A stretch of 58,654 bases of DNA from a virus (lineage: Duplodnaviria; Caudoviricetes). Location of the stretch: positions 1 to 58,654 of the IMG/VR virus record IMGVR_UViG_3300043775_001123. One strand, given 5' to 3'. Of this stretch, positions 4,209 through 58,654 are shown one piece after another. The first letter of the stretch is position 1. Every line of letters begins with the position of its first letter. The notes beneath the pieces were generated by a model. That model saw only the letters and a program-made list of their open reading frames with translations, was not told the DNA's origin and made no database searches. The translations under genes and the position numbers were made by a program.

Positions 4209-4276
4209 AACTTTTATCTATTATGGACTCAAATTTAGTAAAATAAAGTAATAGTTTAAATTAAAGTTATTAACAT

Positions 4277-5344: not shown

Positions 5345-5702
5345 TATTAATTGCTATTTGACGCAAAAATAATATACATAAATCTCTTGCTGATATATTG
5401 CTATACCCTATAGGTCCTTTTATCCAACCACCCATTTGCTCTACGGCACTTTTATACTCATCTGAATTTGAATCTGTAAGTTTCATTAGGTAATCAGTTA
5501 AATCATCTTCGTAAGATTGTAATGCAGCGTGTGTAGTCACATCTGTCAATCTCTTTGTATCTCCAACTTTCCACACTAAAGAAGTCATACTTCTACTATA
5601 TGGTTTTGTCTGAACCAACCAAATACCATCAGACAAGGTATCTGTATATCCGATTACTTCTTCATATCTACCATTTTTTTTCTTTCTATAAAGTGTTTCC
5701 AT
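5319..5702 (-). CDS. Hypothetical protein
   Basis: Coupled ORF. Confidence 0.55.
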   Translation of the reverse strand: METLYRKKKNGRYEEVIGYTDTLSDGIWLVQTKPYSRSMTSLVWKVGDTKRLTDVTTHAALQSYEDDLTDYLMKLTDSNSDEYKSAVEQMGGWIKGPIGYSNISARDLCILFLRQIAINIENDETNS

Positions 5703-5713
5703 TTGTTTATTTT

Positions 5714-6394
5714 TTAAGAAATTTCAATTATATTTCCGTTAGAGGATAGTTTCCCAAACTTGCCATCTGTGACTACTGAACCATTACTAAACCAAGTGTC
5801 ATACGCACTAAACTTAGTTAATCCAGCATTAATAATATCTTTGCAGTTGTGTATATGACCAAAAAGCACGTATGCAGGTTCAATTTCTAAAACCCTATTT
5901 AGTAAAGATTTATCTCCACAAGATTCCATATTATGATTTCTATCGTAAGACTTATCTAATACACCTCTAGGTGGTCCGTGTGTAATAATTACATCGGTAT
6001 CTTCTGGTATAGCCATTCTCCAAAACCTCTCTAACTTTACTCTGTCCTTCATAAAAGCCCATTGACCGAATTGTGGGGTATGTGGCGATCCAAAGAAGTT
6101 AATTCCTTCTATAGTTACAGATTCATTCTCAAGGTATATAATACCTGCGTCTTCAAAGTCTTTCTTTGTTACTAACTTCTTCTCTATTGAGACGTCGTGA
6201 TTCCCAGCTACATAAATCTTGTATTTAACTGGTATCATCTTAAACCAATCAATAAAATCTCTAACTTCAGGTTCATTATTGTAAGGGTCTCTTGTATTAC
6301 TACAATCTCCTGAGTGTATAATCATATCAATATCATAAGGTACTTTTAATAAGTCGTGATAACCGTGTGTATCACTTATATGCCATATTTTCAT
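5714..6394 (-). CDS. Calcineurin-like metallophosphoesterase
   Basis: ISDTH, HSGD, AGNHD, THGPP, FGHIH motifs. Confidence 0.9.
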   Translation of the reverse strand: MKIWHISDTHGYHDLLKVPYDIDMIIHSGDCSNTRDPYNNEPEVRDFIDWFKMIPVKYKIYVAGNHDVSIEKKLVTKKDFEDAGIIYLENESVTIEGINFFGSPHTPQFGQWAFMKDRVKLERFWRMAIPEDTDVIITHGPPRGVLDKSYDRNHNMESCGDKSLLNRVLEIEPAYVLFGHIHNCKDIINAGLTKFSAYDTWFSNGSVVTDGKFGKLSSNGNIIEIS

Positions 6395-37358: not shown

Positions 37359-39985
37359 AGGGATTAAGTAAAGATATTGAAATAGCTGTTGATACTGTAA
37401 TTGAAGGATTAGAGTATGAAACCGATATGTCTTTAGTTGATGCTGACAAAGTAAAGACCATTGTAAAAGCAAAGGTCGATTCATTTAAGTATGGTAAAGA
37501 TTTACTTGTAAGATGGCAGAATAGTAATAACGCTCCAAATGATGCTACTTTAAAGAAGTATGTAAAAAGACTAATAAAAGCTGGAGATATTGCTTTAGAA
37601 GTACTTAGAAATGCTTTAAGGAGTAAGATTGATTATAATGAATTAGATCCATCTAAACACCATTTAGCTATTTCCGTTAAACCATCTATTCACCAGGCTA
37701 TTGTAGAGATAGATTCTGCATTAATGGAATTACGTTTACAATTAGACGCTGATAATATTAATCTAAAGGATAATGAATTTAAAAGAGGGTATCCTGAAAA
37801 GTTTGCTTCTGGAGAATTTTTACCTACAAAAGATTATTATAAAGAATGGTATGACAAAAAAAATGACGCTGTAATTATATGCCCTAAGGGAACTAAAGGT
37901 GAATTAATTAAAGTTGGAGAATTAAATGTTATACTACCTGAAATACCAGCAAAGAAAGATATACTTTTTTCTAAACTAAAGAAAGAGGACCAATATTGGA
38001 GAAGACTTGATGTACCTACTGGATTATCTCAAGATACTGTTGAATCATACGCTGAATATATAATAGAGGAATTTAGAAGACGTAGAGAAGGTATTTGGTT
38101 TATGAATAATGGTAAAGCTCAATATTTAACAGGAACTCATTACTTTGCCTTACAATGGGTAAAGATGGAAGACTCAGGTGGATATATGGACTTTAGATTT
38201 GCTCAAAGAGATATGTTTTACTTTACACAAGCGTGTATTGTAGATGATAGATGTCTTGGAGAGTTATTTGTAAAGTCAAGACGTACAGGTTACACTTATC
38301 AAATACTTTGTCAATTACTTAATGACGCAACCTCTGTATCAAATGCAAGACTTGGTATAACATCTAAATCTAATGATGATGCTGAAAAGGCATTCTCTAA
38401 ATTAAGTTATGGTTTTTTAAATTTACCTTTCTTCTTTAAACCTATTGTAAAGGGCGTAGAAGATTCAAAGAAAAAATTAGACTTTGCCAAGCCTTCAGAT
38501 AGGAGTAAGATTGGAAAGAAAAAGAACGATACAAATACAGACGATTACTTAAATACATTAATTGACTTTTTACCAACAAAAAATGATTCTTATGATGGTC
38601 AGAAGATGTTTAGATATTTAGCTGACGAGGCTTCTAAATGGACCAAACCAGCAAATTTTGAAAAACACTGGGGTCAAGTATCACCGACTTTTGATACAGG
38701 AGGTAGAATTGTAGGTAAAGCATTTGTAGGTTCAACCGTAGCCGCTATGAAAGATGGTGGTGAAGAATACTACGAATTGTATAAGTCTTCAATGATTAAG
38801 AAGAGAAATAAGATTACAGGAAGAACACCATCAGGATTATACACTTACTTTTTGCCAGCCCATAAGAATATGGAGGAATTTACAGATAAGTATGGTGTTT
38901 GCCACGAGGTTATAGAAAAAGGTAGTGGATTTGAGAATGTTCAAGGTAATTGGAAGACAATAGGTTCAATTCAATTCTTAGAGGCTAAGAGAATCAGTAA
39001 GAAGAAGGAAAGCGACATTTCTTATAATGAAGAATTAAGAGCATTCCCAATGACAATTGATGAAGCATTTAGAGATGAGTTATCTCAGTCTACATTTAAT
39101 ATTGAGAAGATATTATCGCAAGTTAAGATTAATGACGAACACGAAATAGAAAACACATTAGTTAGAGGTAATTTCCAATGGAAAGATGGGGTACAAGATA
39201 CAGAAGTAGAATGGCATCCTAATGAAAAAGGCAGATTCTTGATTTCCTGGATACCTCCATACGAAATGCGTAACAAATTTGAATGGAAGAATTTATACGG
39301 AATGCAAACAAGATTTCCTTCGAATGAAGATATTGGTGCTTTTGGTTGTGACCCTTATGATATATCAGCTACGGTAGAAGGAGTTAGAAAAGATGGTTCT
39401 TATAATGAGAATACAGATAGAGCATCTAAAGGTGCTTTACACGGTTTAACATCGTTTTCATTTTCTAATGCGCCAAACCATAGTTTCTTTTTAGAGTATG
39501 TATCAAGACCAAGAACAGCAGAGATATTCTTTGAAGATGTATTAATGGCTTGTGTTTTTTATGGTATGCCTATATTAGCAGAGAATAATAAACCACGTTT
39601 ACTATATCACTTTAAAAATAGAGGTTATAGAGGATATTCTATATCTCGTTTTGATAAACCTGAAAATAGATTATCTCCGACAGAGAAAGAATTAGGTGGT
39701 ATGCCTAACTCCTCTCAAGATGTTATAAATATGCACGCTACTGCAATAGAATCTTACATAGAGAAATACGTTGGATCGTATGATGATGATGGAGAAATAC
39801 CAAAGAATATGCCTTTCAATGCTACGTTAAAAGATTGGATGAAATTTGAAATAAATAATAGAACAAAATATGATGCATCTGTTAGTTCTGGATTAGCTAT
39901 TATGGCTGTAAACAGAAAGATGTATATGCCAAAACAAAGAGAATTAAAGGATATCACTATAAATTTAAGATTATACAATAACTAA
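37355..39985 (+). CDS. terL: Terminase large subunit with helical N-terminal extension
   Basis: Walker A KSRRTGYT, Walker B YLADEASK, GST motif III, nuclease GCDPYD, ENN and YDA. Confidence 0.85.
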   Translation: MKGLSKDIEIAVDTVIEGLEYETDMSLVDADKVKTIVKAKVDSFKYGKDLLVRWQNSNNAPNDATLKKYVKRLIKAGDIALEVLRNALRSKIDYNELDPSKHHLAISVKPSIHQAIVEIDSALMELRLQLDADNINLKDNEFKRGYPEKFASGEFLPTKDYYKEWYDKKNDAVIICPKGTKGELIKVGELNVILPEIPAKKDILFSKLKKEDQYWRRLDVPTGLSQDTVESYAEYIIEEFRRRREGIWFMNNGKAQYLTGTHYFALQWVKMEDSGGYMDFRFAQRDMFYFTQACIVDDRCLGELFVKSRRTGYTYQILCQLLNDATSVSNARLGITSKSNDDAEKAFSKLSYGFLNLPFFFKPIVKGVEDSKKKLDFAKPSDRSKIGKKKNDTNTDDYLNTLIDFLPTKNDSYDGQKMFRYLADEASKWTKPANFEKHWGQVSPTFDTGGRIVGKAFVGSTVAAMKDGGEEYYELYKSSMIKKRNKITGRTPSGLYTYFLPAHKNMEEFTDKYGVCHEVIEKGSGFENVQGNWKTIGSIQFLEAKRISKKKESDISYNEELRAFPMTIDEAFRDELSQSTFNIEKILSQVKINDEHEIENTLVRGNFQWKDGVQDTEVEWHPNEKGRFLISWIPPYEMRNKFEWKNLYGMQTRFPSNEDIGAFGCDPYDISATVEGVRKDGSYNENTDRASKGALHGLTSFSFSNAPNHSFFLEYVSRPRTAEIFFEDVLMACVFYGMPILAENNKPRLLYHFKNRGYRGYSISRFDKPENRLSPTEKELGGMPNSSQDVINMHATAIESYIEKYVGSYDDDGEIPKNMPFNATLKDWMKFEINNRTKYDASVSSGLAIMAVNRKMYMPKQRELKDITINLRLYNN

Positions 39986-39987
39986 TT

Positions 39988-42429
39988 ATGATAAAAAAGA
40001 AAACAGAAGGCGTTTCAATTACTTATAGAAGTTTTCCAGACCAAAATGTACCATTTGAGGTTCAATCGAGTACAGATTATGGTTTGCAAGTAGCTGAGTC
40101 GATACAGTACGAGTGGTTTTCAAGAAGCGCAAGAAGTTGCAAATACTTCGAACAAAGAGATGACTTTCATAATAGACGTATGTATGCTAATGGTATGCAA
40201 AGTTTATCAAAGTACAAGGAGAAGTTCGCTGTTAATGGTAATATGTCTTACTTAAATTTAGATTGGAAAGTTGTTCCTGTAATACCAAAATATGTAGATA
40301 TTTTATCTAACGGTATGGCACAGAGAGAGTTCCAAGTTAAGGCTACTGCTGTAGATCCTACATCTATCAAGCAAAGAGCTGAAAAGAAAAGAGGTTTAGA
40401 GAGAGATATGGTTGGTAAAGATATGGCTATTGATATCAAAAATAAATTAGGCATTGATGTAACATCTGTTCCGATTGATAAGATACCTGGCTCAAAAGAA
40501 GAGTTAGATATTCAAATGGAATTAGAATACAAACCACCTATTGAAATGGCAGAAGAAGTTGCTATTGAATCAATCTTTAAATTTAATGATTACGACAAAA
40601 CAATTAGACGAAGAGTCGAAAAAGATATTATAGAGGTTGGAGTTGGTTTTGCAAAACATAGATTCACGCCTTCAGATGGTGTTAAGTTGGAGTATGTAAA
40701 CCCTGCTAATCTAATTTGGTCTTATACAGAAGACCCTTACTTTCAAGATTGTTTTTATTTTGGAGAGTATAAAAATGTTAATTTATCTGAGGTATATAAA
40801 GAATACCCAAATCTTTCAGCAGAACAAAAAGAGAGATTACAAGGTATTTCATCTTCTTGGAACAATTACTATGAATTAAACTACGATAGTCAAAATACAG
40901 ATGTATTAGATGGTAAAATAGGTTTACTTTACTTTAATTATAAAACATCAAGAGAGAAAGTTTGGAAAAAGAAAAAGAACTCTAAAGGTGGTTTAAAAGT
41001 AATACCAAAAGGAAATGACTTTATTTACAAAGGTACAGGTGATGCTGACTTTGAAAAATTAACTAAAGTAGAAGAAGTTTGGTTTGAAGGAGTATTAGTT
41101 TTAGGAACAAGTATCTTATTGCAATGGAATGTAGTTAAAAATATGGTTAAGGAGAACTCAAACCTTAATAAAGTATTACCTAACTATATTGGTGTTGCTC
41201 CAAAGATGTATAAAGGATTCATTGACTCTACAGTTAATAGAATGATACCTTTTGCTGATGATATTCAGATGTCTTGGTTAAAACTACAACAAATTAAACA
41301 AAGAGTTGTTCCTGATGGTCAATACATTGATATTGATGGATTAGTTGGAATAAAACTTGGAAGTGGAAATAAATACACCGTTGAAGACGCACTTAATATG
41401 TACTTCCAAACAGGTTCTGTAATCGGTAGAAGTCAAAATGTGGGTGGTGAATTTAATAGCGCTAAAGTACCAATTCAAGAAATTAGACACTCTTCTGGTC
41501 AAGATAAGATTAGTTCACTATGGAATAGTATTCAGATTTCTATGGATATGATTGCATCTGTAACAGGAATTAATCAAGCAATTGATGGCAGTAACCCTGA
41601 TAAAAATAGTTTAGTTGGTATTCAAAAGATGGCAGCTTATTCATCTAATGTAGCTACAAGACATATTCTTGAAGGCAGTATGTTTGTTACTAGAGAGTTA
41701 GCTAAATGTATAGCTATTAGAGTATCAGATATATTACAATTCTCTGAGTTAAAGAATGACTTAATCAATAAAATATCTGCAAATAATGTAGATGTATTAA
41801 AGACCATAGATAAATCTTACTTACACGACTTCGCAATTAATATTGATTTAGTTCCAGATGATGAAGAAAGAGCTAAATTAGAGGCAGACATATCAATAGA
41901 AATACAACAAGGTAATCTTGGTGTTGAAGATAAGTATGCTATATTAGGTATTAAGAATATGAAGTTGGCAGGTAAATACCTTGCAGTTAGAAAAGACAAG
42001 AAGATGAAAGAAAGACAAGAGGCTGAAATGCAAAAAATGCAAGCTCAAACTCAATCTAATGTTCAGTCATCTCAAGCAGCTTCAGAAAGTAAAGCACAGT
42101 TAATTCAGTTAGAAGGTCAATCTAAAGCAATGGTAGAACAAACAAGAGTTCAAGCTGAGATGGAGAAAATGCAAATGGAGGCTCAATTAAAACTACAACT
42201 AATGGAAAGAGAGTTCCAATACCAAATGCAATTAAAAGGTATAGAGGTTGAAGGTATGAAGAGCAAAGAAACTATGAAGGAAGATAGAAAAGACGAGAGA
42301 ACAAAGCTACAAGCCACACAACAATCCAAGATGATTGAGCAACGTAAAAAAGATATGTCATCTATAAACTTCGAGTCCTCAGAAGATAGTTTGGATGCGT
42401 TTTCATTAGGGTCTTTTGAACCTCGTTAA
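39988..42429 (+). CDS. Portal protein
   Basis: Position after terL; LDWKVVPVIPKYVD; Q/E/M-rich C-terminal coiled-coil barrel. Confidence 0.8.
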   Translation: MIKKKTEGVSITYRSFPDQNVPFEVQSSTDYGLQVAESIQYEWFSRSARSCKYFEQRDDFHNRRMYANGMQSLSKYKEKFAVNGNMSYLNLDWKVVPVIPKYVDILSNGMAQREFQVKATAVDPTSIKQRAEKKRGLERDMVGKDMAIDIKNKLGIDVTSVPIDKIPGSKEELDIQMELEYKPPIEMAEEVAIESIFKFNDYDKTIRRRVEKDIIEVGVGFAKHRFTPSDGVKLEYVNPANLIWSYTEDPYFQDCFYFGEYKNVNLSEVYKEYPNLSAEQKERLQGISSSWNNYYELNYDSQNTDVLDGKIGLLYFNYKTSREKVWKKKKNSKGGLKVIPKGNDFIYKGTGDADFEKLTKVEEVWFEGVLVLGTSILLQWNVVKNMVKENSNLNKVLPNYIGVAPKMYKGFIDSTVNRMIPFADDIQMSWLKLQQIKQRVVPDGQYIDIDGLVGIKLGSGNKYTVEDALNMYFQTGSVIGRSQNVGGEFNSAKVPIQEIRHSSGQDKISSLWNSIQISMDMIASVTGINQAIDGSNPDKNSLVGIQKMAAYSSNVATRHILEGSMFVTRELAKCIAIRVSDILQFSELKNDLINKISANNVDVLKTIDKSYLHDFAINIDLVPDDEERAKLEADISIEIQQGNLGVEDKYAILGIKNMKLAGKYLAVRKDKKMKERQEAEMQKMQAQTQSNVQSSQAASESKAQLIQLEGQSKAMVEQTRVQAEMEKMQMEAQLKLQLMEREFQYQMQLKGIEVEGMKSKETMKEDRKDERTKLQATQQSKMIEQRKKDMSSINFESSEDSLDAFSLGSFEPR

Positions 42430-42448
42430 AAAGTGTCTTAATATTTCG

Positions 42449-42456
42449 TAATTTTG
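42449..42456 (+). promoter_or_regulatory. Bacteroidota -7 element (TAATTTTG) for scaffold-capsid
   Basis: TAnnTTTG-CA. Confidence 0.5.
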
Positions 42457-42485
42457 CAAAAAATTTTAATCTAATCTAAATTAAT

Positions 42486-43514
42486 ATGAAGTTGAAACTA
42501 GAAGGCTCTGAATGGAGTCAAGTAGAAGATAATAATAATGGTGTTCAAAATAATGATGTGATCATTGACAATGAACAAAATTCAGAAGTGAACACACAAG
42601 ATGTAACGGACCAAATTACTGATTCAGTTACAACAACAGAGGATAACGTTCTTAAATTTAATAATGAAGATGAAGTTTTAGAGTTTATCAAATCTAAAGA
42701 AGACTTATATTCTAAAGTAGCTGTAAAGTCTGAGGAAAAGGAATTGCCTTCAGATATCAAGAAGTATTTAGAGTTTAAGGAACAGACTGGTAGAGGCTAT
42801 GAGGATTTCGTTAATTATCAAAGAGATTATTCAGAGGTTGATAAAGATGCACTTGTAAAGATGTATATTAAAGAAAACAACCCTGAGTTTGATGAATTAG
42901 ATGTTAATGAAGAATTTGCCGAAGCATTCTCTTATGATGAGGATTATGATGACGAAAGAACTATCAATAAAAAAACTCGTGCCTTAAAGAAACTTCATAA
43001 AGAAGCTTTAGATTACTTTGAAGGACAAAAGGAAAAATGGAGTGTTCCGTTAGAGGTTACTAACAACACTGTTATTCCAGACGACTACAAAGCAGCTAAG
43101 GAAACTTTAGAAGCATTAAAGACACAAGAAGAGGTTTCAAAAAAACAGGGTGACTATTTCTTACAAAAGACTGATGAGTTATTTTCTAATGAATTTAAAG
43201 GTTTTGAGTTCAAAGTTGGAAATGAGGTAATCGTTCAAAGACCAAGTAGTGTAGATTCTGTTAAGGAAAGCCAAAAAAATGTTATGAACTTCTTTAGTAA
43301 GTTCTTAGATGAGAATGGTTTGATTAAAGATGCTGAAGGATATCACAAAGCTCTTTATGTAGCAATGAATTATGAATCTGTTTTAAAGAATGTATATGAA
43401 ACAGCTCAAGCAAAAGCTATAGAGGGAGAAGTTAGAAATAGCAAGAATATAGATATGTCTATCAGAACAGCACCTCAAACTATTTCAACAGGTACAAAGT
43501 TCAAGTTAGTATAA
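42486..43514 (+). CDS. Capsid scaffolding protein
   Basis: Acidic and helical, between portal and capsid. Confidence 0.65.
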   Translation: MKLKLEGSEWSQVEDNNNGVQNNDVIIDNEQNSEVNTQDVTDQITDSVTTTEDNVLKFNNEDEVLEFIKSKEDLYSKVAVKSEEKELPSDIKKYLEFKEQTGRGYEDFVNYQRDYSEVDKDALVKMYIKENNPEFDELDVNEEFAEAFSYDEDYDDERTINKKTRALKKLHKEALDYFEGQKEKWSVPLEVTNNTVIPDDYKAAKETLEALKTQEEVSKKQGDYFLQKTDELFSNEFKGFEFKVGNEVIVQRPSSVDSVKESQKNVMNFFSKFLDENGLIKDAEGYHKALYVAMNYESVLKNVYETAQAKAIEGEVRNSKNIDMSIRTAPQTISTGTKFKLV

Positions 43515-43540
43515 AAATATAAAAATAAAAAAATTAAATT

Positions 43541-44887
43541 ATGGCATTAGAAGCTACACCAGGAGTAAAATTAACTCCTACTGCGACAAAAGAAATTTTG
43601 TCTACAAACTATTATGAAGCGGCTGACTTCGATTTCAGCACATCAATTTTACCTGAGTTATACGAAAAAGAATTTGCTCGTTACGGTAATCAATCTTTAA
43701 AAGGATTCTTAGAAAGAATGGGTCAAGAGATGCCAATTCAATCTGACTTAATTAAATGGTCTGAAGAAGGTCGTTTAAGACCAGTTGGTACAGGTATTTC
43801 TCGTTCTTCTAACGTGTTTACTTTAACTGCTCACCCTTTCCGTAAAAATGATACAGTTGTTATCGTTGGAACTACAGGTATTGAGAAAAAAGGTATTGTA
43901 TCTGCTGTTACAACTGATACATTCACAGTTCTTCCTACTGAAGCTGCTGGATGGCCATCATCTAACTTTGCTGCTGACCTTAAAGCATTTACTTACTCTA
44001 ATGAGTACAGAAAAGGAACTAATGGTAGAGAAGAGTCTTTAGAGGCGCAACCAGACATCTTTGAGAACAAACCAATCATCATCAAAGAATTAGATGAAGT
44101 TAATGGTTCTGATATGACTCAAGTTGGTTGGATTGAAGTAGAAGGAGAAAACGGAGCTGGTTACTTATGGTACTTAAAATCAAGAGCGCAATCTCGTATG
44201 AGATTTGATGATTACCTTGAAATGGGTATGATTGAGGGTGTTTCTTATGAAAGTGGTTCTGCTGCTGCTACTGCTGGATTTACAGGAACTGAAGGTTTCT
44301 TCGAATCTGTAGAGCAAGGAAATATCTTCTCTGGTGTTATTACTTCATTAGCTGACGTTGATGATATCTTAGCTCGTTTAAACAAGCAAGGTGCTATCTC
44401 TGAATACATTATGATGAATGACTTTGAGCAAGATAGAGCTTTAGATTACTTATTAGCTTCTCAAAACTCTTATGGTGTTGGTGGTACTTCTTATGGTGCT
44501 TTCAATAACAGCGAAGATATGGCTTTAAACTTAGGATTCACAGGATTCAAAGTAGCTGGTTTTGAAATCTATAAATCTCAATGGAAATACTTAGACGATC
44601 CAACTGCACGTGGTTTATTTGAAGGTAATCAAGCAATTAACGGAGTTATGTGTCCTTCAGGAACAAAAACTGTACGTGATGAAGTATTAGGAGCTAACGT
44701 TACTTTACCTTTCTTACACGTTAAATACCGTAAATCTGCTACAGAAGATAGACGTTACAAAGTTTGGCAAACAGGTTCAGCAGGTGGTGCAAACAACTCT
44801 GACTTAGATGCTAACCAATTACATATGTTGTCTGAAAGAGCATTATGTACTATGGGAAGAAACAATTTTGTCTTAATTCGTGGATAA
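43541..44887 (+). CDS. Major capsid protein
   Basis: 448 aa, high-expression codon bias (CGT, TTC, AAC), WSEEGRL, followed by a strong terminator. Confidence 0.8.
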   Translation: MALEATPGVKLTPTATKEILSTNYYEAADFDFSTSILPELYEKEFARYGNQSLKGFLERMGQEMPIQSDLIKWSEEGRLRPVGTGISRSSNVFTLTAHPFRKNDTVVIVGTTGIEKKGIVSAVTTDTFTVLPTEAAGWPSSNFAADLKAFTYSNEYRKGTNGREESLEAQPDIFENKPIIIKELDEVNGSDMTQVGWIEVEGENGAGYLWYLKSRAQSRMRFDDYLEMGMIEGVSYESGSAAATAGFTGTEGFFESVEQGNIFSGVITSLADVDDILARLNKQGAISEYIMMNDFEQDRALDYLLASQNSYGVGGTSYGAFNNSEDMALNLGFTGFKVAGFEIYKSQWKYLDDPTARGLFEGNQAINGVMCPSGTKTVRDEVLGANVTLPFLHVKYRKSATEDRRYKVWQTGSAGGANNSDLDANQLHMLSERALCTMGRNNFVLIRG

Positions 44888-44912
44888 AATTTTGTAAGAA
44901 ATTACATAATAT

Positions 44913-44940
44913 AAAGAGGGGTTAGTTCCCCTCTTTTTTT
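44913..44940 (+). terminator. Intrinsic terminator after capsid gene
   Basis: AAAGAGGGG-TTAGTT-CCCCTCTTT plus T run; promoter TACCTTTG at 44955-44962. Confidence 0.85.
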
Positions 44941-44989
44941 ATACCTTTATTTCGTACCTTTGCAAAAATAAAATTTAATTTAATTAATT

Positions 44990-45739
44990 ATGGCAAAAAC
45001 AACAAAAAGTGCTGAATTAGCACCAAAAGACAAGACTTACACCTTGTTAAGTACAAACACACCTATGCAATTCTTTTTAAGAAACAGGCATAAGAAACAA
45101 TCTCCATTACAATACTACGATGAGGAGAAAAAACAATTAAGGTCTTTATGTTATGCATCAAATCAAATATCAATCTTTGAAGATGAGCAAACAGGAGATG
45201 TAATGTTAGGTTCTATTGTGTTTGTGAATGGTAATTTAACTGTACCAAAAACAAATCCTCAATTACAACTATTCTTAGATACTACACCTGACAATGGTAT
45301 TGTATTTGAAGAATTTAAACCAGATGAAATTGCTGAAAGAGAAATTACAAGTATTGAACTTGAAATGGAAGCATTACAAATCGCTATGGAGTTAAAGGCT
45401 TCTGAAATGGAAAGTATTGCTTTAACGGTATTTGGATCTAGTGTACTAAAGAAAAAGACCGCAGAAGTGAAGAGAGATTTATTTGTTTACGCAAAAGAAA
45501 ATCCAGAGCATTTCTTGGCATTAGCTAAAGATGATATGACTAAGTTAAAAGGTTTAGCTGTTAGGGCAGAAACTTTAAATTTGTGTCAGTATAAATCTAA
45601 TGCTTTCTACAACAACGATACGTTATTATGTAAAGTTCCTTTTGATGAAACAGATAAGTATAACACCATTGCAAGTTGGATGAATTCAACAGATGAAGGT
45701 AAGGCTTTCTTAAAGTTTATTGAAACAAAGATTAAGTAA
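44990..45739 (+). CDS. Conserved hypothetical protein downstream of capsid
   Basis: Own promoter and terminator. Confidence 0.65.
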   Translation: MAKTTKSAELAPKDKTYTLLSTNTPMQFFLRNRHKKQSPLQYYDEEKKQLRSLCYASNQISIFEDEQTGDVMLGSIVFVNGNLTVPKTNPQLQLFLDTTPDNGIVFEEFKPDEIAEREITSIELEMEALQIAMELKASEMESIALTVFGSSVLKKKTAEVKRDLFVYAKENPEHFLALAKDDMTKLKGLAVRAETLNLCQYKSNAFYNNDTLLCKVPFDETDKYNTIASWMNSTDEGKAFLKFIETKIK

Positions 45740-45764
45740 TTTAGGTTTCTATATCTATGATTAC

Positions 45765-45795
45765 AAAGGAGTGGTTTAAGTATCACTCCTTTTTT
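45765..45795 (+). terminator. Intrinsic terminator
   Basis: AAAGGAGTGGT/ATCACTCCTTT plus T run; promoter TATCTTTG at 45801-45808. Confidence 0.8.
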
Positions 45796-45825
45796 ATTTG
45801 TATCTTTGCAAATAATTTTATAGAT

Positions 45826-46554
45826 ATGATAAACCAAGTTTATACTACAGTTTTAGCAATTATAAATAAAGATAATAGAGGTTATGTGTCTCCGTTAGAG
45901 TTTAATTTATATGCAGAACTTGCTCAAATGTCCTTGTTTGAGGAATTATTCCATAAGTACGCTAAATCAATTGTAAAGCAGAATGCAAGAATGTATCATT
46001 CTGAGTATTCAGATATACCAAAACACATAAGAGAAGTAATAGATATATTTGTAAGTGAAGCTGATTTATCATTGGTATTAAATAGCGGAAATATATATGA
46101 ATATGTTGTGTCTGATTTTTATAGAGGTATAAAAATAGATAGATTATCATCTGGTTCTGATTCGTTTTCTGGTAGAAAAGAAGTTGAAGAAGTTAGTAAA
46201 TTAGAGATTACAAAATTACTTAACAATAATTTGATAGCACCTACAAGTGAATACCCAATCTACATAGGTATTAATGGTAAATATAGAATATTTCCAATAG
46301 ATTCTATATCAAAAGTAATAGGTACTTATATAAGAAAACCTAAACAACCTAAATGGACTTATCAAGTGGTTGGAGGAAATCCTTTATTTAATCCTACAGC
46401 TACAGATTACCAAGACTTTGAACTTCCTGAGTCTATGTTTAATGATTTAGTTGTAAAGATTTTAGGATATGCAGGTGTAGAGATAAGAGAGGCTGATATA
46501 ATCCAAGTATCACAAGGAATGGAAGTTAACAACAATAACCAAGAACAATTATAA
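45826..46554 (+). CDS. Head-tail adaptor/ring protein 1
   Basis: Start moved to MINQVY after the promoter; NKDNRGY..P.EFN, YIRKP..PKW, FELP. Confidence 0.6.
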   Translation: MINQVYTTVLAIINKDNRGYVSPLEFNLYAELAQMSLFEELFHKYAKSIVKQNARMYHSEYSDIPKHIREVIDIFVSEADLSLVLNSGNIYEYVVSDFYRGIKIDRLSSGSDSFSGRKEVEEVSKLEITKLLNNNLIAPTSEYPIYIGINGKYRIFPIDSISKVIGTYIRKPKQPKWTYQVVGGNPLFNPTATDYQDFELPESMFNDLVVKILGYAGVEIREADIIQVSQGMEVNNNNQEQL

Positions 46555-47414
46555 TGGCACATCAAATTTTACCACCTATAAATTATTATCAAAACGAAGA
46601 GAATTGGGGAAGTTATCAATATGTAACTTTATCTCAGTTAGTAGATAATTTTATGTTAAACTACATTGGAGATGATAACTTGTTATCTAATGTAAAGAGA
46701 TACAATGTATTAGCCCAATTTAAGAGAGGTATTCAAGAATTTAACTACGATACATTAAAAGAGATTAAGGTTACAGAGCTTGAAGCTAATGATAATTTAA
46801 CTGTTATATTACCTCACGACTATGTTTCTTATGTTAGAATATCTATTGTTGGTCAAGATGGTTTACTAAGACCATTATCACAAAACTCTTATACAACTCT
46901 AGGAGCTGCTTATTTGCAAGACAATCAATTCAATATTTTATTTGATGAAGATGGATATCCTTTGGAAGCAGAGGAAACTGAAATGACTAAGAGGTATAAA
47001 ATTGGTAGTCCGTATTCTGAAGGAGATTGTGAGTTACCATTTGATAATTCACCTGCTTATGGTTTAAAACCAGATATTAATGCTAATGGCTATTTCAATA
47101 TAGACAAGAGAAGAGGTATATTATCATTCTCTTCAAATGTAAGGGGTAATCTAATCGTTATGGAGTATGTATCTGATGGTTTAGAATACAACAATGGAGA
47201 AGAGGTAATGGTTCATAAATTAGCAGAAGATGCTTTATATAGCTATGTTAAATACCAATTATTAAATAATAAATATGGTATTCAAGAATACATTATAAAT
47301 AGAGCTAAGAAAGATTACTACAGAGATTTACAAAACACCAATATAAGAATGCTTGATTTAAGAGGTGATGAACTTCTTATTATGTTAAATGGCAGAAAAA
47401 AATGGCTTAAATAA
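46554..47414 (+). CDS. Tail ring/tubular protein 2
   Basis: LPHDYVSYVRIS, EYVSDG; TAATG-coupled. Confidence 0.6.
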   Translation: MAHQILPPINYYQNEENWGSYQYVTLSQLVDNFMLNYIGDDNLLSNVKRYNVLAQFKRGIQEFNYDTLKEIKVTELEANDNLTVILPHDYVSYVRISIVGQDGLLRPLSQNSYTTLGAAYLQDNQFNILFDEDGYPLEAEETEMTKRYKIGSPYSEGDCELPFDNSPAYGLKPDINANGYFNIDKRRGILSFSSNVRGNLIVMEYVSDGLEYNNGEEVMVHKLAEDALYSYVKYQLLNNKYGIQEYIINRAKKDYYRDLQNTNIRMLDLRGDELLIMLNGRKKWLK

Positions 47415-50400
47415 TGGGTAAAATTCAAAATAATTTTCTAAAGGCGACAGTTAATAAGGATCTTGATGAGAGATTAACTCCTAACGGACAGATGACAGAT
47501 GCTACCAATGTTATGGTTATATCTGAAGATTCTGGTAATGTTGGTGTTTTAAAGAATATAAAAGGTAACTTAAAAGTTACTAATACAGGAATAGTAGGAG
47601 CAGAAACAATAGGCAGTATTTCAGATGAAGCAAAGAATAGAGCTTTTTATTTTGTCAAGGGTCTTGGATATGATTACGTTATTCAATATGATACTGAGGT
47701 TGATGATGTGAATACTGCATATACTATTGTATTGCAAGATACAGCAGGTCGTGTATTAAATTTTGATACCGAATATCGCATATCGCATTCTGACATATTT
47801 ACAAGTGTAGAGGGAGATGATTTATTATCTTGGACTGATGGTTTAAATCCTCCAAGAATAATCAATATAGAGAGAGCTAAGACGTATGGTATTGATGGTT
47901 TTTCAGAAGATGAAGTATCTGTAATGAAACCTTCTCCTATTTTTGCTCCAAGTGTAACTCAATTTCAATCTACAAATATTGACTTTGCAGGATTCCTTAG
48001 AGATAAATTCTTATCATTTGCTTATAGATATAGATATAAAGATGGATATTACTCTTCGTTTTCTTCGTGGAGTCCTTACGCCTTTACTCCAGGTAGCTTT
48101 AATGTTGATTTAGATACGTCAACTAATTTATCTATGGAGAACATATCCAAGTCTTATGAAATATCATTTAATACAGGACCAAGAGAAGTAGAGGAAGTAG
48201 AGTTAGTATTTAAGATATCTAATAGTAATAATGTTTATTCTATTATTAAGTTAAATAAAGCAGATGAAGTATGGGCTGATAATTTCAACAAATCATACTT
48301 ATTTGAAAATTATAAGGTTTACAATGTATTATCTGAGAATGAATTTTTTAGAAGTTTTGATAACGTACCATTAAGTGCTTATGCTCAAGCTAGGATAGGT
48401 AATAGGTTAGTTTACGGAAACTTTGTTGAAGGTAGAGATATAGATTCTAAAATAGACTTTTCAGTTGATTATGATAGTCAAACTATTAATACATTAGATA
48501 TAGAGGATGTTGGAAGTTACGAAGCTCCTTATGAAATACCATCTCTTGTAGATTTTTGGGGAGTATCTGATCGGACTATAGTTAGTTCAGGTGAAGGTAT
48601 AAGCATAGATTATGAAACAAATATTATAACACTTGAAAATATTTCACCTACTGACGATAGGAGATTTCAAGTAAATGTTACACTACAAAAAGAAGCTACT
48701 TTTTCTTCTGTAGGTTGTTTTTGTGATGTATATGTTGACGGTATGTTAGACCATACATTTTCATTTCCTTCTGGAGTTACAGAAGATGAGCAAGGAATTA
48801 CATTATTTATACCATCTTTTTATAAACCTCCTGGATTTTCTTGTGAAGTATATCTTGTTGTTAGGTCTGATAGTCCTTTGTTATGCAAATTAAAGGCTGA
48901 TTTTGGAATATTGTCTGCTTCTCCGCCTTATATGTCTATAAAAGGATTTGATACGGATGGGTATTATCAATTATTCTCTAATGAAGATAATCTAATAAAT
49001 AAGAAATCTTTAGATATTGATTTTACAAATATACCAGTTATAGATGGTACACAAATATTATTTGAGTTTGATATAAGAAGTTATTTCTCTCCAAATGATT
49101 TGTTGCAACCTATAGATAATCCTAATTTATATAAGTTTCCATATACTGTAGTTGGAACTTACTTAACTAAAGAGGATTTTATAACAAACTCTAACTTTAT
49201 ACCTCAACTTGAAACATTCTTTTCAGCACAATTAGCAGATGCTGATTCAAACATACCTGGAGCTATCAATGTTGTAGTAGATCCGTTATTAACGAGTTTC
49301 GACCCTATTACAAACGTATTAAACTTAATAATACCAAATAGAACATTAGATGTAGAAGAAACTGGAAGTGGTGATTTAGAAGAGAAGATAGATTATGTTT
49401 TTTGTGAAGGTGTATTAATATCATATTCTTTAGGTACACTATTTACAAGTATGCACTCTTCAAGAGATTACGAAGTTGGTATGGTATTCTTGGACAATAA
49501 AGGAAGAAAGACAACTGTAATAGATTCAAAAAATAATAGCGTATATGTTGAAGCTATTAACTCAGTAACTCAAAATGTATTAAAAGTAACGACTACTGGA
49601 ACACCTCCTAGTTGGGCTAAGTATTATAAATTTGCTGTAAAGTATAATAGAGGAAAATACGAGACTATATTTACAAAGAAAGTATATACTGTAGGTTTGT
49701 TCTCTTACTTAGAACTTGTTGGGGATAATAAGAATAAAGTAAAAGATGGTGATTACCTTGTGGTTAAGAGTGATTTAAACGGTCCTTTAAATAGTTATGT
49801 AAAAGTAAAGGTATTAGAGGCTAAGTTTTACGATAAAGACGAAATAGATACAGATACAGAAAGTGGGTTTTTCTTTAAGGTAAAGGCTGGTAATTTTGAT
49901 TTAAGAGTTTCGGAAGATGACTTTTTAGAATTTATTGGTCCAGCTAAATCATATAGAAGTCCTTACTATATTGAATCAGCAAAAGTAGAACTTCCGATTG
50001 GAACACCGTTAGCTTTCACAAGTGGTAATGTAGTTAGGTTTGTATCTTATTGTAATAGAGGTGGTAGTTCTTCGTTTGAGAATAAAATGGACCAAGAGTA
50101 CTTACTTACAAGAGATTATGCTGACTTTAGAGCTGTGTTTGAAGATATAATTGAGCCATCAAATGCATATCAAAAGTTTGCGGTTGAAGGAGATGTTCAG
50201 ATGTCTTACAAATGGATTCCAGATCCAGCTGGTAGAACTCAAATTAGTTTTGCTCCACGTACAGGTCGTAGAAATAGCGATATAGATACCAAGACAGATA
50301 TATATGTAACAAAATCTAATATACCTGTATTCGAAACAATACCATTAGATAGCGATAATAACGTATATGTAGAAACCCCTAGAACTTATGTAATAAATAA

Positions 50401-54371: not shown

Positions 54372-57300
54372 ATGATTCAAGATCCAGAATACGTAAAAAA
54401 AGTACATAAAGCATTAACTGATAAAGTAGATGGTTTTAATAAAAGTTTAGAGGAATTTTCTGCTTCATTAAATGATGATAAATACGTAAGCAATGTATAT
54501 AAGGCTTTGAGTGATAAAATTGATGGATTCAGTAAAACTCCTGAACAATTCAAGTCATTAGTATCTTCACCTAAACCTCAAAAAAAAAATTCAAATTCTA
54601 CTGGAACGACTCCTCAAAAGGTGTCAGCTACAAAACCGCAACAGAAAACTACTACTTCGGTTGGAGAGAAACCAGTAAAAACTACGCCTTCGGGTTCTTC
54701 GTTTGGAGGAAGTAATAATATGTATGGTGGTTTAAATGTATTACCACCTGCACCACAGCCTTCTTCTAAGAAACCAATCCCTGTTATGGGAGAGGACATT
54801 CAATTAACTACTAAAAAAGATGGTGTTAAAACAGATATGTCTGGAAATGTTATTTTAGATACAACAAAAAAAACACTTGGTATTCGTGATGAAGATAAAT
54901 TTAAGGAATATAAGCAAGAATTAGAAAAAGTAGACGATAGGTTAGATGTGGCTATAAAAGAAAAAGTAAGCCCTAGAATATCTTATGAAAACTTAAAGAG
55001 CGAGTTAGATGAGTACGAGTTCTCTGATGTTATAAAAGAAGGTTTAAGAAATACTTATAATTCGTTAATAGGAAATCCATTATCTATAATATCTTCTAAA
55101 TTAGGTTCAGAAAAAGATTTTTATATAAAAAAAGGAAATCCTTTAGAAGAACAAAAAAAGAGAGCTGAAAAAGAATTTGCCGAACAAGGCGTGTCTGTGT
55201 CTCCTCAAAAAATACAAGAGAGAGCGGAAGAACTATATATACAAGATGATGTATTAAAGCAAAAACTATCAATTACTGACGAGTTTTTCAGTTCTATAGA
55301 CAAAGGACATCTTACACAAAAACAATTAGAAGTAGTAAAAAAAGCTGAGGTATTTAATAAAAATCAAGAAATAAAGTCTAAGTATCTACTATATAGAGAA
55401 AATGACAGCAAGATAAACGCTTTAAATAATTTCATATTAGAAATAAATAAAAAAGGAGCTGCTACAGAAGAAGATAAAATAGAATACAAAAGACTTTTAA
55501 GTTTAGCTACTGATGCTGAAGAAACAAATAAACAATTATCAACTCAATTTGCATCTGATTTAGAAAAACTAAAAACAGACGAAGAGAAATTAGAATTACT
55601 TAAATACAATTACAATGATTTAGAGGCTTTTAATACTTTTTTAGCATCAAATATCACAGGACTTTTAGGTGGTGGTTTAAAGCTTTTAGGTGAAACAGAA
55701 GATTTTTTACTTGAAAAAGTTGGATTAGAAGGTGAATCTATTAGAGCGAACGCATACAAAAGTATTGGTGGAGAAATGATTTCTGCTTCAGAAGAAGCTA
55801 AAAAGCCTTTTAGAGCTATGTCTATTGAAGATATAAATAACTTAGGCGATCTTGGTTCTTGGTTTACTCAAACTTCTTCATCTACATTAACTAGTGTTGC
55901 CGCTATGTATTTTGGTGGTGGATTTGGTCTTACTGCTTTATCTATGGGGGCTGGAGGTCAAAGAATAGCCGAACTCGAAAAAGAAGAAGCTTTAGGTTTG
56001 ATACCAAAACAAAGTAATGGAGAAAAGGTATTGGCAGGGTGGTTTTATGCTGGAGCTAGTTATTTTCCTGAGAAGTTTGGTACGTTTAGATATTTACAGA
56101 ATTTAAGAAAAACATTTTCAACATTAAATTCTGAATCAAGAAGATTATTTAAAGACTCATTTTTAAAGTCTTCTGCAAAAATAGTAACGTTAACAGGTGG
56201 TCAATCTTTTATTGAAGGAGGCGAAGAGGGTGTTACATCTTTAATTGAAGACGTTACAGATATTTATTTAAGCGGAAAAGAATTGAATAGCAATGATATA
56301 GCTAGAAAATTCAAGAATGCAACAGCTGCTGGTATAGCTAGTGGAGGCACTATGTCTTTAGGCGGTAATTTATCGTTAATGTATTATAGCAACTTAAATC
56401 AATTAGCAGTATCCAAAGATATAAAAGAAAGCAGAAGATTGTTAATTGAAATGGAATCCATAACAGAAGAGTTGAATACAAATACATCATTACTTGATTC
56501 TGATAAGGTTATATTAAATAGAAAATTAAACGACTTAACTGAAAAGTTATTTGAAAATGTAACTAAAACAGAAAACAATGTCGGAAATATATCTTTAAAT
56601 GAGATTTCTAAAGTTATAGATATAAATAACGAACAAGCTAAAATTAAAGAAGAGTATGATAATTTAAGAAGTTCAAATATATCTAAATCAATAAAGGATT
56701 CTAAAGTAAAAGAATTAGATGCTAAATTTGTTTCACTAGAAGCTATAAGAAACGACATTCTTAATGGTAAATATAATGTATTATCATTTATCACAGAAGA
56801 AGAATCAACTAAACTTAAACTACAAGCTGCTGAAGAATTAAAGGCAGAAGCTATAGCAAGTGGCATTGAAGAAGGCAAAGTAAATATTAAGGAAGAAGAA
56901 ATAACTAAAAGAGCAATAGATAACTATGAAAAACAATCTAAAGAAACTACAGTCGAAAAACCCACTAAAGAAGGACCTACAGGGCAAGAAAACGTACAAG
57001 ATGTTACCTCAACACAAGGACAACAAGATAAAGTCGTACAAGAAAAAATAGACAACGTAGATAATAGACCTATTTCAGAAAGACAAGCAGAGGCAGAATC
57101 TAAAATAAAAAGAAAAGATTTATTTATTGGTGTTGGAGAATTCTCTACAGAACTTGGAGGTAGCGATAAGGCTGCTGTTCCTGTATCACATAACGAGAAT
57201 AATGGCATTGAGGTTGTTGAGTATGCACATCCAGACACTGGTAGTATAGATGTTATTGTTACTGGAAAGTCTGAAAACGATTTTGTTGGATTTTATCGTG

Positions 57301-58654
57301 TTTACGAAAATGGTAAGCCTACTAATAAATGGAGTTCTAAATTTGAAAATAAATCAAGAAATAAAGAAGACTTTAAGACAATGATTTCTGGAGTTCAAGA
57401 ATTATTACCAGAAGGACATATGTATACTGAAAAAACAAGTATATCAACAGATGGTTTAAGAGTTTGGAATCAACAATTAAGCAAAGGTTACGAATTACAA
57501 TACGATAAAGACGGAAATATACTAACCAATACAGTTTTTATAAACGGAGATGCTATTGAAAATGAATTAGGAGTAGATGTTAATCGTGGTAATTTTGATA
57601 GTATAAGGGTTACAGAGGAAGAATTTGAGAATGTAAAAAAAGCACTTATACCGTATTTAGAAAAACTAGGATTAAACGAAAATAACATTAGATTAAAAAC
57701 AAGTAAAGCGCCTAAAATACCTGGTTATAATCAAAAATCATTGGTAGAAATAGACCTGCCTATTTTAAAAAAGTCACAAAACGAAACAAAAAACAAGGTA
57801 GAGGAACTAAGACAGCAAGAGATAGCTGAATTTAATAAAGAGGTTGAAAACCCTCAAGACTTCATTACAGATGGTAAAATAGATGCTAAAAAAGTATCCG
57901 AATCTGACAACGCAAAAGCTAAGGAGATTTACGCTAAGTATGATAAGTTACTAAAACCGTTATTAACTAATATTAAAACACAAGAAGATGCCATTCAAAA
58001 GCAAAGCACAAGTGAAGGCGTGTTACGCCAAGAACAATCCGAAATGGGATTGCAAGAAGTGGTCGAAGGAGACCAAGAACCTGAAGTCACTACCGAAAAA
58101 ATTGAAAAAGTAGCTAGAATATCTGGTGTTAAACCTAAAAACATAAAGGGTTTATACGATGTAAACAGAAAAATGTTTGGTCAAAACAGAGTTAAGGCAT
58201 TAGCTTCTGCTGTAATTATGGATAGAATGATAGGTTCTATGGCTAAAAGAGCTAATGTAGATAAGTCTGAAATATATAAAAAAATAAGGTTTGAAAAATC
58301 AAGTGAAACAGACTTACCTAAAGGTATTAAATTTCAAGTAGATGCTTGGCACGGAAGCCCTCATTTTTTTGATAAATTTACAACTGAAAAGATGGGTACT
58401 GGAGAAGGTGTTCAAGCATTTGGTTGGGGATTATATTTTACAGAAATTAAAAGTATTGCTGAACATTACGCTAAATATTTGAGTTCTCCTTTATTTGAAG
58501 ATTTTGTTAGTAAATTACAGAAAAGTAATTTATCAAAATTGTCTATATTGAATATATCTGAATTTTCAGAATATTATTCGTACGATTATGACAAAGTATT
58601 AAATGCTTTAGAAAGAGAACAAGACAATGAAGCTATAAAATACATTAAAGAAAA
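54372..58654 (+). CDS. Giant ejection/polyvalent protein (more than 1427 aa, 3'-truncated) with ART-like domain
   Basis: Open from ATG 54372 to the window end (absent from track because no stop); N-terminal duplicated YVxxVxKALxDKxDGF; Gly/Ala hydrophobic segment; WHGSPH.FDKF...GTGEG.QAFGWGLYF near 58340-58440. Confidence 0.8.
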   Translation, partial: MIQDPEYVKKVHKALTDKVDGFNKSLEEFSASLNDDKYVSNVYKALSDKIDGFSKTPEQFKSLVSSPKPQKKNSNSTGTTPQKVSATKPQQKTTTSVGEKPVKTTPSGSSFGGSNNMYGGLNVLPPAPQPSSKKPIPVMGEDIQLTTKKDGVKTDMSGNVILDTTKKTLGIRDEDKFKEYKQELEKVDDRLDVAIKEKVSPRISYENLKSELDEYEFSDVIKEGLRNTYNSLIGNPLSIISSKLGSEKDFYIKKGNPLEEQKKRAEKEFAEQGVSVSPQKIQERAEELYIQDDVLKQKLSITDEFFSSIDKGHLTQKQLEVVKKAEVFNKNQEIKSKYLLYRENDSKINALNNFILEINKKGAATEEDKIEYKRLLSLATDAEETNKQLSTQFASDLEKLKTDEEKLELLKYNYNDLEAFNTFLASNITGLLGGGLKLLGETEDFLLEKVGLEGESIRANAYKSIGGEMISASEEAKKPFRAMSIEDINNLGDLGSWFTQTSSSTLTSVAAMYFGGGFGLTALSMGAGGQRIAELEKEEALGLIPKQSNGEKVLAGWFYAGASYFPEKFGTFRYLQNLRKTFSTLNSESRRLFKDSFLKSSAKIVTLTGGQSFIEGGEEGVTSLIEDVTDIYLSGKELNSNDIARKFKNATAAGIASGGTMSLGGNLSLMYYSNLNQLAVSKDIKESRRLLIEMESITEELNTNTSLLDSDKVILNRKLNDLTEKLFENVTKTENNVGNISLNEISKVIDINNEQAKIKEEYDNLRSSNISKSIKDSKVKELDAKFVSLEAIRNDILNGKYNVLSFITEEESTKLKLQAAEELKAEAIASGIEEGKVNIKEEEITKRAIDNYEKQSKETTVEKPTKEGPTGQENVQDVTSTQGQQDKVVQEKIDNVDNRPISERQAEAESKIKRKDLFIGVGEFSTELGGSDKAAVPVSHNENNGIEVVEYAHPDTGSIDVIVTGKSENDFVGFYRVYENGKPTNKWSSKFENKSRNKEDFKTMISGVQELLPEGHMYTEKTSISTDGLRVWNQQLSKGYELQYDKDGNILTNTVFINGDAIENELGVDVNRGNFDSIRVTEEEFENVKKALIPYLEKLGLNENNIRLKTSKAPKIPGYNQKSLVEIDLPILKKSQNETKNKVEELRQQEIAEFNKEVENPQDFITDGKIDAKKVSESDNAKAKEIYAKYDKLLKPLLTNIKTQEDAIQKQSTSEGVLRQEQSEMGLQEVVEGDQEPEVTTEKIEKVARISGVKPKNIKGLYDVNRKMFGQNRVKALASAVIMDRMIGSMAKRANVDKSEIYKKIRFEKSSETDLPKGIKFQVDAWHGSPHFFDKFTTEKMGTGEGVQAFGWGLYFTEIKSIAEHYAKYLSSPLFEDFVSKLQKSNLSKLSILNISEFSEYYSYDYDKVLNALEREQDNEAIKYIKE
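56926..57051 (+). CDS. Nested +1-frame basic peptide (MKNNLKKLQSKNPLKK..., 41 aa)
   Basis: ATG with A-rich context (ATAACTATG) inside an acidic linker of the giant gene. Confidence 0.35.
   Translation: MKNNLKKLQSKNPLKKDLQGKKTYKMLPQHKDNKIKSYKKK
57988..58113 (+). CDS. Nested +1-frame MPFKSKAQ-type small basic protein (41 aa)
   Basis: MPFKSKAQVKACYAKNNPKWDCKKWSKETKNLKSLPKKLKK; resembles a common stand-alone phage family (from memory). Confidence 0.6.
   Translation: MPFKSKAQVKACYAKNNPKWDCKKWSKETKNLKSLPKKLKK

Follow-up and report, generated by a model that had tools for sequence, protein, structure and literature searches.

Evidence for a conserved small gene nested out of frame in a giant virion-protein gene of a Caudoviricetes phage

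The window analyzed here is the complete 58,654-nucleotide (nt) stretch of IMG/VR virus record IMGVR_UViG_3300043775_001123 (Duplodnaviria; Caudoviricetes). A small open reading frame (ORF) close to its 3' end, at 57988..58113, is very probably a real, unannotated protein-coding gene that lies out of frame within the gene for a giant virion protein, as judged from comparative sequence data. An initial annotation of this DNA had proposed such a nested gene. The proposal is now supported by the intactness of the ORF in relatives, by selection that tracks the nested frame, and by homologues found outside the overlap; the position and the peptide given there agree with ours to every letter of the translation. 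The DNA unit carrying the small ORF is hereafter called the cassette, and the gene around it the host gene. All of the following features are on the plus strand of the window.

57988..58113, plus strand: nested small gene, putative; ATG start, 41 codons, TAG stop; assigned from the ORF call, homologues and selection in the nested frame
57987..58112, plus strand: host-frame reading of the same DNA; 42-codon acidic, Glu/Gln-rich linker of the giant protein; ratio of non-synonymous to synonymous substitution rates (dN/dS) 1.07, rare codons
57975..57987, plus strand: A-rich, just ahead of the nested ATG; candidate region for initiation of translation
54372..58654, plus strand: host gene, encoding a giant polyvalent virion protein; 5' part, running open off the window end

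The nested reading frame and the selection acting on it

The small ORF is in the +1 frame relative to the open ORF 54372..>58652 of the window. When the 4283-nt stretch of the giant gene was used as a blastn query against 50,697 phage records, the match was confined to 57843-58109. All records hit are of Flavobacterium Elemovirus (68) except one Caudoviricetes record, with identities of about 84%. In Flavobacterium phage elemoA, the +1 ORF is intact (42 codons) within a giant gene annotated as 'structural protein', DUF3293; the giant proteins of the window and of elemoA share 29.7% identity over amino acids (aa) 69-895 in blastp. A protein search retrieved 12 small called proteins of 40-62 aa. 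Viral contigs were scanned in two ways, the best 80 loci being kept each time, with distant contexts under-sampled. The scan with the peptide alignment found at least 323 relatives, and an intact, ATG-started ORF was present in all 80 kept loci. The small ORF was always +1 of the host, and the open stretch of the host frame spanned it entirely in 78 of the 80; one of the other two is cut at the contig end and the second, locus L037, has one host-frame stop. The other scan used the host-frame peptide as query to avoid circularity. It found 451 relatives, and every one of the 80 kept loci had the ATG and a +1 ORF of 41-51 codons, with 1-5 stops in the third frame. Full-length unique copies number 148 (41-52 codons) and come from uncultured phage contigs and from Elemovirus. 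A disrupted +1 frame in close relatives, which the initial annotation had named as the sign of a spurious gene, was not encountered: the ORF was intact in all relatives examined. We dropped the chance-ORF explanation; the length of the ORF by itself is a matter of chance, and what exceeds chance, judging from the relatives, is its conservation together with the frame-specific pattern of substitution.

In L037 (4577-4702) the host-frame stop falls 15 codons into the cassette, and the nested ORF is identical to that of a near twin without the stop (L039, 6001-6126). The stop could be a sequencing error, or could reflect a defective genome or a host gene that restarts downstream.

Over 73 unique ATG-anchored copies, the mean column entropy of the first, second and third nested codon positions was 0.41, 0.37 and 0.79. 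In a codon alignment of 51 unique host genes of the ~400-aa type described below, host position 3 was the most variable in 33 of the 34 scored windows outside the cassette. Within the cassette, all four windows had their maximum of variability at host position 1, i.e. the nested third position (0.71-0.76, with 0.32-0.58 at host position 3). Pooled Nei-Gojobori counts on 123 unique 91-nt segments, to be read as descriptive figures, gave the following values.

Nested (+1) frame: dN/dS 0.127, dS 1.11, dN 0.14, mean amino-acid identity 0.805
Host (0) frame: dN/dS 1.07, dS 0.21, dN 0.23, mean amino-acid identity 0.623

This comparison of both frames, suggested by the initial annotation, shows strong purifying selection on the nested frame, with a host frame that evolves about neutrally over the cassette, save for staying free of stops. 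In contigs from four lake metagenomes, five of the seven variant places listed within the ORF are nested third positions and the other two give V9M and K15Q; the 501-base stretch holds 48 further places beyond those listed. The four lake runs are of DNA, and none of the 20 runs listed was an RNA run. In one of the lake contigs, a nucleotide inserted behind 58026 is compensated by the loss of one at 58030, so that only one or two codons are changed in both frames.

The host-equivalent frame was also read in 13 family members that are not nested. It contains 2-9 stops in 11 of them, and the two stop-free ones are on high-GC contigs open in all frames. In nested copies this frame is open in all but one contig. 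Openness is thus maintained only where the copy is nested, and dual coding is not inherent to the sequence. Nested copies carry two constraints, the protein sequence in the +1 frame and the avoidance of stops in the host frame.

The composition of the cassette departs from that of its surroundings, as had been noticed initially. The local rise in GC is confirmed, with values of 0.45-0.47 in 100-nt windows at 57975-58099; flanking windows are mostly at about 0.26-0.36, with the exception of 57150-57249 (0.44). The codons described as atypical for the host frame are indeed so: GC content at third codon positions (GC3) is 0.33 in the cassette versus 0.17 in the other 1384 codons of the giant gene, in which CGC does not occur and GCC, GTC and TCC occur three times each. 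Read in its own frame, the nested ORF has a GC3 of 0.66, versus 0.17 for the giant gene outside the cassette, which would fit third positions selected to suit the host reading.

The nested ATG is invariant in 116 unique upstream stretches. Adenine is frequent in these at -13 (0.96), -12 (0.86), -11 (0.91), -6 (0.76) and -3 (0.72), and the window itself has A at all five positions. As controls we took 3677 other +1-frame ATGs within the same host ORFs. The frequency of A at these positions is 0.59-0.96 in the 32 giant-type and 76 scaffold-type unique upstreams (see below for host types), versus 0.36-0.47 in the controls. The combination of A at -13, -12, -6 and -3 is present in 59% of the giant-type and 34% of the scaffold-type upstreams versus 2.8% of the controls, a 12-21 fold enrichment. 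According to a report on Flavobacterium johnsoniae, upstream A at these positions promotes initiation in this bacterium, without Shine-Dalgarno pairing (Baez 2019, PMC6847099).

We propose that the nested ATG would be an independent start site for ribosomes on the late structural mRNA, giving rise to a free protein of about 41 aa, with the A-rich, Shine-Dalgarno-less signature typical of Bacteroidia serving this initiation. Ribosomes translating the host gene would read the cassette as a tolerated acidic spacer, probably disordered. The small gene would be the older partner and the host-frame linker the younger, 'overprinted' reading, since free and fused relatives exist far outside the clade.

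Host genes and placement of the cassette

At least two types of host gene were found. Giant hosts are ORFs of 1280-3270 codons; their open frame runs for 484-1229 codons before the cassette is reached, and the flanks differ. The second type is a gene of ~400 aa in which the cassette is at aa 38-61. It is located between the portal gene and a gene for a capsid-like 'virion structural protein', with the large terminase gene before and a crAss-type muzzle gene downstream; it therefore occupies the scaffold position. Neither the ~400-aa host nor a 1934-aa giant matched Pfam or PHROGs. In the window the corresponding gene lacks the cassette, and the order of genes, syntenic with that of relatives, is terL (37820-39982), portal (39988-42429), scaffold-position gene (42486-43514) and capsid-like gene (43541-44887). 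The structural module of the window at 37820-47947 (terL, portal, scaffold-position, capsid-like and muzzle-like genes) is syntenic with uncultured contigs matching a crAss-type muzzle protein. This synteny would link Elemovirus-like phages to crAss-like virion architecture.

42486..43514, plus strand: scaffold-position gene, 342 aa, between the portal and capsid-like genes; without cassette here, its counterpart hosting the cassette in many relatives
57843..57986, plus strand: conserved host-frame domain (ends ...NIKTQE), directly before the cassette; common to Elemovirus and 8 further contigs
58347..58511, plus strand: weak match to the start of an ART-PolyVal-like domain (PF18760, E 0.0034, under the curated cut-off); aa 1326-1380, cut by the window end

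The giant ORF of the window has a run of ten A in its 5' part (54580-54589), the A10 site mentioned in the initial annotation. Runs of nine A number three in the window, below the 11.1 expected from shuffles. Within the giant ORF there are, in addition to the nested ORF, three more ATG-started +1-frame ORFs of 41-46 codons (56926-57051, 57250-57384 and 58342-58482), one of which may be the second nested ORF of the initial annotation.

The limits of the cassette are visible in the four lake metagenomes. Summed over contigs, the depth on 57970-58088 is about 10-50 times that of the flanks, and contigs diverge from the window at 57971-57987 and at 58062-58113. The conserved unit thus begins a little before the ATG and ends near the stop, and we regard it as a discrete dual-coding cassette made up of ~13 nt of leader and the whole nested ORF, stop codon included. 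One match per record was found in five of five records checked, and the window also has one. The 99.6-kb record G010 has two members, one with the two conserved cysteines of the family and one without them (Cys-less), in different hosts. In G005, a complete record of 64.5 kb, the cassette is in the scaffold-position gene, and a giant ORF of 2936 aa is present without it.

Structural proteins of the cassette-bearing phages are 30-45% identical. The first 1205 aa of the window giant gave no match when searched in five related records, so the orthology of the giants is not demonstrable by sequence; likewise, the 2936-aa giant of G005 had no blastp match at 1e-3 to the giants of the window and of elemoA. 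A probe made of the upstream host domain located 12 loci, in 8 of which the cassette directly follows the domain; three distant loci have the domain without the cassette. In locus L325 the cassette is missing after the probe domain, and a Cys-less member, nested in the same relative frame, instead precedes this domain, ~170 nt upstream. The Cys-less subtype is also nested in other linkers, again in the same relative frame (L330, 1501-1629; L331, minus strand of the locus).

In Elemovirus, also among the 12 loci, the cassette comes after an inserted domain that is flanked by a 30-nt duplication of the cassette start. In elemoA (L001), the ~30 nt of the cassette start, ATG included, are found at 5591-5620 and at 5992-6020, around an inserted domain of ~130 aa. 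The +1 ORF of the first duplicate ends after 10 codons, and the arrangement resembles a recombination scar at the cassette.

A weak tree of the cassettes (148 unique copies, 96 nt) implies at least 5 changes of host type; the mean over 1000 label shuffles was 35.4 and the minimum 28. Placement appears from this tree to be mostly inherited, with some switches. The idea put forward initially, that the linker is a by-product of engulfing the small gene, fits both the host-frame dN/dS close to 1 and the existence of related host genes without the cassette. As to its origin, the cassette may have been engulfed by gene fusion or may have arrived by insertion.

More tentatively, these observations could define a class of linker-resident genes. 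Such a gene would be an old virion-adaptor gene that survives in a large clade of aquatic phages only within the disordered linkers of structural genes, usually as one copy per genome, and that moves between the scaffold-position gene and various domain junctions of giant proteins, the host linker being a de novo reading. The cassette DNA would double as a recombination site at which the domains of polyvalent proteins are shuffled, because downstream modules differ right after the cassette, because the 30-nt duplication of the cassette start flanks the inserted domain in elemoA, and because the Cys-less paralogue is found in a different linker. We consider this broader picture as a whole to be possible and still rather doubtful.

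The peptide family and its possible role

The nested peptide is basic, with a basic tail and two conserved cysteines, C12 and C22. It matched no Pfam family at E<=10 in hmmscan and no PHROGs entry. HMMER against 1.84 billion representatives returned 167 matches at E<=1e-3, mostly to residues 1-41 of proteins of 38-1155 aa. Positions M1, P2, F3, Q8, C12, W20 and C22 are near-invariant in the family, in which the Cys-less subtype comprises some members that lack both cysteines. AlphaFold2 with a 106-row alignment predicted two short helices, at residues 6-15 and 22-28 (pLDDT 85.4). Nothing in the PDB matched the peptide by fold or by profile, and the BFVD matches, all at E >= 0.0098, were limited to small uncharacterized proteins from giant viruses and uncultured phages. 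These searches place the peptide in an older, wider and unnamed viral family outside Pfam and PHROGs.

The homologue search recommended in the initial annotation was run, and stand-alone homologues are present outside the overlap. The description given there, of a widespread stand-alone small phage protein, holds in substance. Free-standing members do exist (L140/L237, L143, L314, L309 and L121), and the BFVD matches are small viral proteins; many other members are N-terminal or internal in-frame domains of larger virion-type proteins, and most copies in viral contigs are nested. Some of the free-standing genes lack both cysteines. The free-standing member of L140 (4001..4129, 42 aa) is one of several closely packed small genes, which come after ORFs that by their sequences look amidase-like (one) and membrane-like (small ones). 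It is followed within 4001-4487 by two further small basic Cys-containing ORFs (37 and 81 aa) with overlapping stop and start codons, and the trio looks like an operon of tiny basic proteins. The members of L143 and L314 are of 48 and 43 aa, that of L309 is directly upstream of genes that look terminase-like, and that of L121 is an 83-aa ORF in a giant-virus bin. Among the in-frame partner domains are YkuD, Phage_lysozyme2, Phage_Mu_F (twice), Peptidase_C39, DUF2213, DUF5661 and DUF4269. When long members were compared with PHROGs, those bearing MuF were assigned to head morphogenesis, and 11 of the 16 scanned had no PHROG. The 76-aa protein P0013 consists of a scaffold-type N-terminus joined in frame to the peptide minus its first two residues, an arrangement that points to a deletion variant, or else to misassembly, in a single contig.

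The protein could conceivably act as a small basic adaptor linked to head assembly or to packaged virion proteins. This tentative role, less likely than not, is proposed because the hosts are the scaffold-position gene and a giant 'structural' polyvalent protein; because the in-frame partners include MuF as well as cell-wall enzymes (tail lysozyme, L,D-transpeptidase-like, C39 peptidase) of a sort common among proteins that are packaged or ejected; and because one free-standing copy adjoins terminase-like genes and the tail of the peptide is basic. Alternatively to a small adaptor, the protein may be associated with DNA or with the portal. A spanin-like product of the Rz1 kind was discarded, the peptide having no hydrophobic stretch and residues 1-11 being charged or polar.

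Competing explanations, known systems and meaning

Several points weigh against a nested gene as we describe it. The ORF length is at chance level, since 4 of the 41 ATG-started alternative-frame ORFs within the giant AT-rich ORF reach at least 41 codons. Copies share descent, so locus counts are not independent, and many loci recur as the same contigs between the two scans. Nei-Gojobori dN/dS values are biased for overlapping frames and the copies are related, which makes the figures descriptive, with an unambiguous direction. The initiation signature used for comparison is that of F. johnsoniae, although Elemovirus alone among the contigs has a named host, Flavobacterium. The A-rich upstream stretch could partly reflect Lys/Glu-rich host coding. 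A hairpin of modest stability is predicted to include the ATG of the window (minimum free energy z -2.2; 5 of 200 shuffles fold equally well), which would be unfavourable to initiation. Finally, the role suggested for the protein is drawn from association throughout.

De novo overprinting, with the nested frame as the young one, was rejected: homologues outside the overlap occur in other phages and in giant-virus bins, and the host-equivalent frame is closed in 11 of 13 non-nested members. Another possibility is that the cassette is a selfish in-frame insertion element, i.e. mobile DNA that spreads among phage genes, is readable in one frame, and has a nested ORF that serves the element, as in the ShiLan insertion. 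Its boundaries are discrete, with the depth of lake contigs raised ~10-50x on 57970-58088 and loose ends at 57971-57987 and 58062-58113; the same cassette is found in different linkers of unrelated host genes and is present or absent among counterpart genes. The first 96 nt of cassettes from giant and scaffold-type hosts are up to 92.7% identical, compared with 30-45% for the structural proteins, at least five switches of host type are inferred on the cassette tree, and the anatomy, with a start a few bases in and a stop at the end, is like that of ShiLan (PMC11855218). However, a two-helix product of 41 aa with no match to a nuclease, recombinase or other family offers no mechanism of mobility, and the cassette is single-copy in five of five records. 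Virion proteins also contain members of the family as ordinary in-frame domains, other members are free genes, and host type is strongly clustered on the cassette tree (5 changes versus a minimum of 28 in 1000 shuffles). We therefore hold an insertion element to be improbable.

Less probable again is that the peptide is never made alone, and that programmed ribosomal frameshifting or transcriptional slippage joins it to host N- or C-terminal sequence. Elsewhere among phages the domain is indeed fused in frame to long proteins, often at their N-terminus, P0013 has just such a fusion to a scaffold-type N-terminus, and the end of the ORF has A-rich Lys codons. Against this, an in-phase X_XXY_YYZ heptamer is found in only 24 of the 148 unique cassettes and is of 9 kinds, the longest A run is of 3-5 in 131 of 148 cassettes and never exceeds 7, the ATG is invariant in the 116 upstreams with an initiation-type signature ahead of it, and free-standing homologues of 41-48 aa exist. 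The selected feature might finally be an acidic motif of the host frame, or an RNA or DNA element, of which the +1 ORF is a by-product. The host-frame reading is conserved (15 diverse loci are 36-60% identical to the window), the predicted fold of the RNA is somewhat more stable than that of shuffles (z -2.2), and nucleotide conservation with respect to Elemovirus is found only at 57843-58109 of the 4283-nt query. This explanation is close to refuted: variability is lowest at host synonymous sites and highest at nested third positions, among them the four-fold sites of Pro, Ala and Thr codons; host-frame dN/dS is 1.07; and the +1 ORF is broken in none of the 80 loci found via the host-frame peptide. 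Homologues of the +1 peptide exist where the host frame is full of stops, and an Rfam search of 57600-58400 gave two chance-level rows only, none near the gathering score.

A nested protein-coding gene, the reading we prefer, has classical phage precedents in lambda Rz1, embedded in Rz in the +1 frame, and in phiX174 E, embedded in the scaffolding gene D. As here, the small gene is fully contained in a larger gene of the same strand and is read in a different frame; Rz1 and E are translated from their own starts. Rz1 (a lipoprotein) and E (a membrane protein) are lysis proteins and are generally held to be the younger, overprinted partner. In contrast, the nested peptide of the window has no hydrophobic segment, its free-standing homologues make the host linker look younger, and it has alternative hosts. 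Adaptors of the PBCV_basic_adap type (PF08789) are alike in being a short basic virus-restricted module that occurs alone or fused to varied enzymes, with relatives in giant-virus bins. PBCV_basic_adap is found C-terminal in 6 of the 106 family members at E<=1 (P0145, residues 59-82, E 2.9e-11), whereas the window peptide itself matches no Pfam model at E<=10. To the 2-cysteine adaptor (PF08793) no match was seen and the resemblance is in kind only. DUF3008 (PF11450) comprises small phage proteins of similar size and beginning; it is the nearest named ESM Atlas cluster (0.87, below the level at which a hit counts beyond a lead) and has rank 16 in BFVD, with low probability. We rejected membership in DUF3008, since hmmscan gave no match for the window peptide and this family was not among the 25 of 50 families listed for the 106 members.

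The nearest described case is the ShiLan insertion, in which actinophage DNA methylase genes contain a hidden out-of-frame HNH endonuclease (Arsenault, Gosselin & Gogarten 2025, PMC11855218). As described there, ShiLan shares with the cassette an insert that is stop-free in the host reading, a second ORF that starts a few bases in and stops in the last bases, and variable presence among related host genes. It differs from the cassette, whose ORF encodes a basic two-helix protein of 41 aa that is no nuclease (no Pfam, PHROG or PDB match) and has no evident homing activity; the cassette is moreover found in at least two unrelated structural genes, and its family is also free-standing or fused in frame. 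In the literature searched, the motif 'MPFKSK' was not found, and work on overlapping or nested phage genes and on polyvalent proteins held no description of this nested gene.

What sets it apart is that an apparently old gene resides in a derived linker, that its host gene differs between members of one phage lineage, and that a record usually has a single copy. Gene callers skip genes nested within longer ORFs, and if the gene is real, annotation lacks a conserved protein that belongs to an abundant group of phages of fresh and marine waters; the scaffold-position host family alone gave at least 8000 candidates in one search. The polarity would be unusual as well, with the nested gene older and the host linker derived, most viral overlaps being explained in reverse. 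The same gene in alternative host genes of syntenic genomes would allow the origin and the movement of dual coding to be followed as a natural experiment. A cultured system is available in Elemovirus on Flavobacterium sp. BAL314, in which the nested start could be removed by a host-silent change, making the proposal directly testable.

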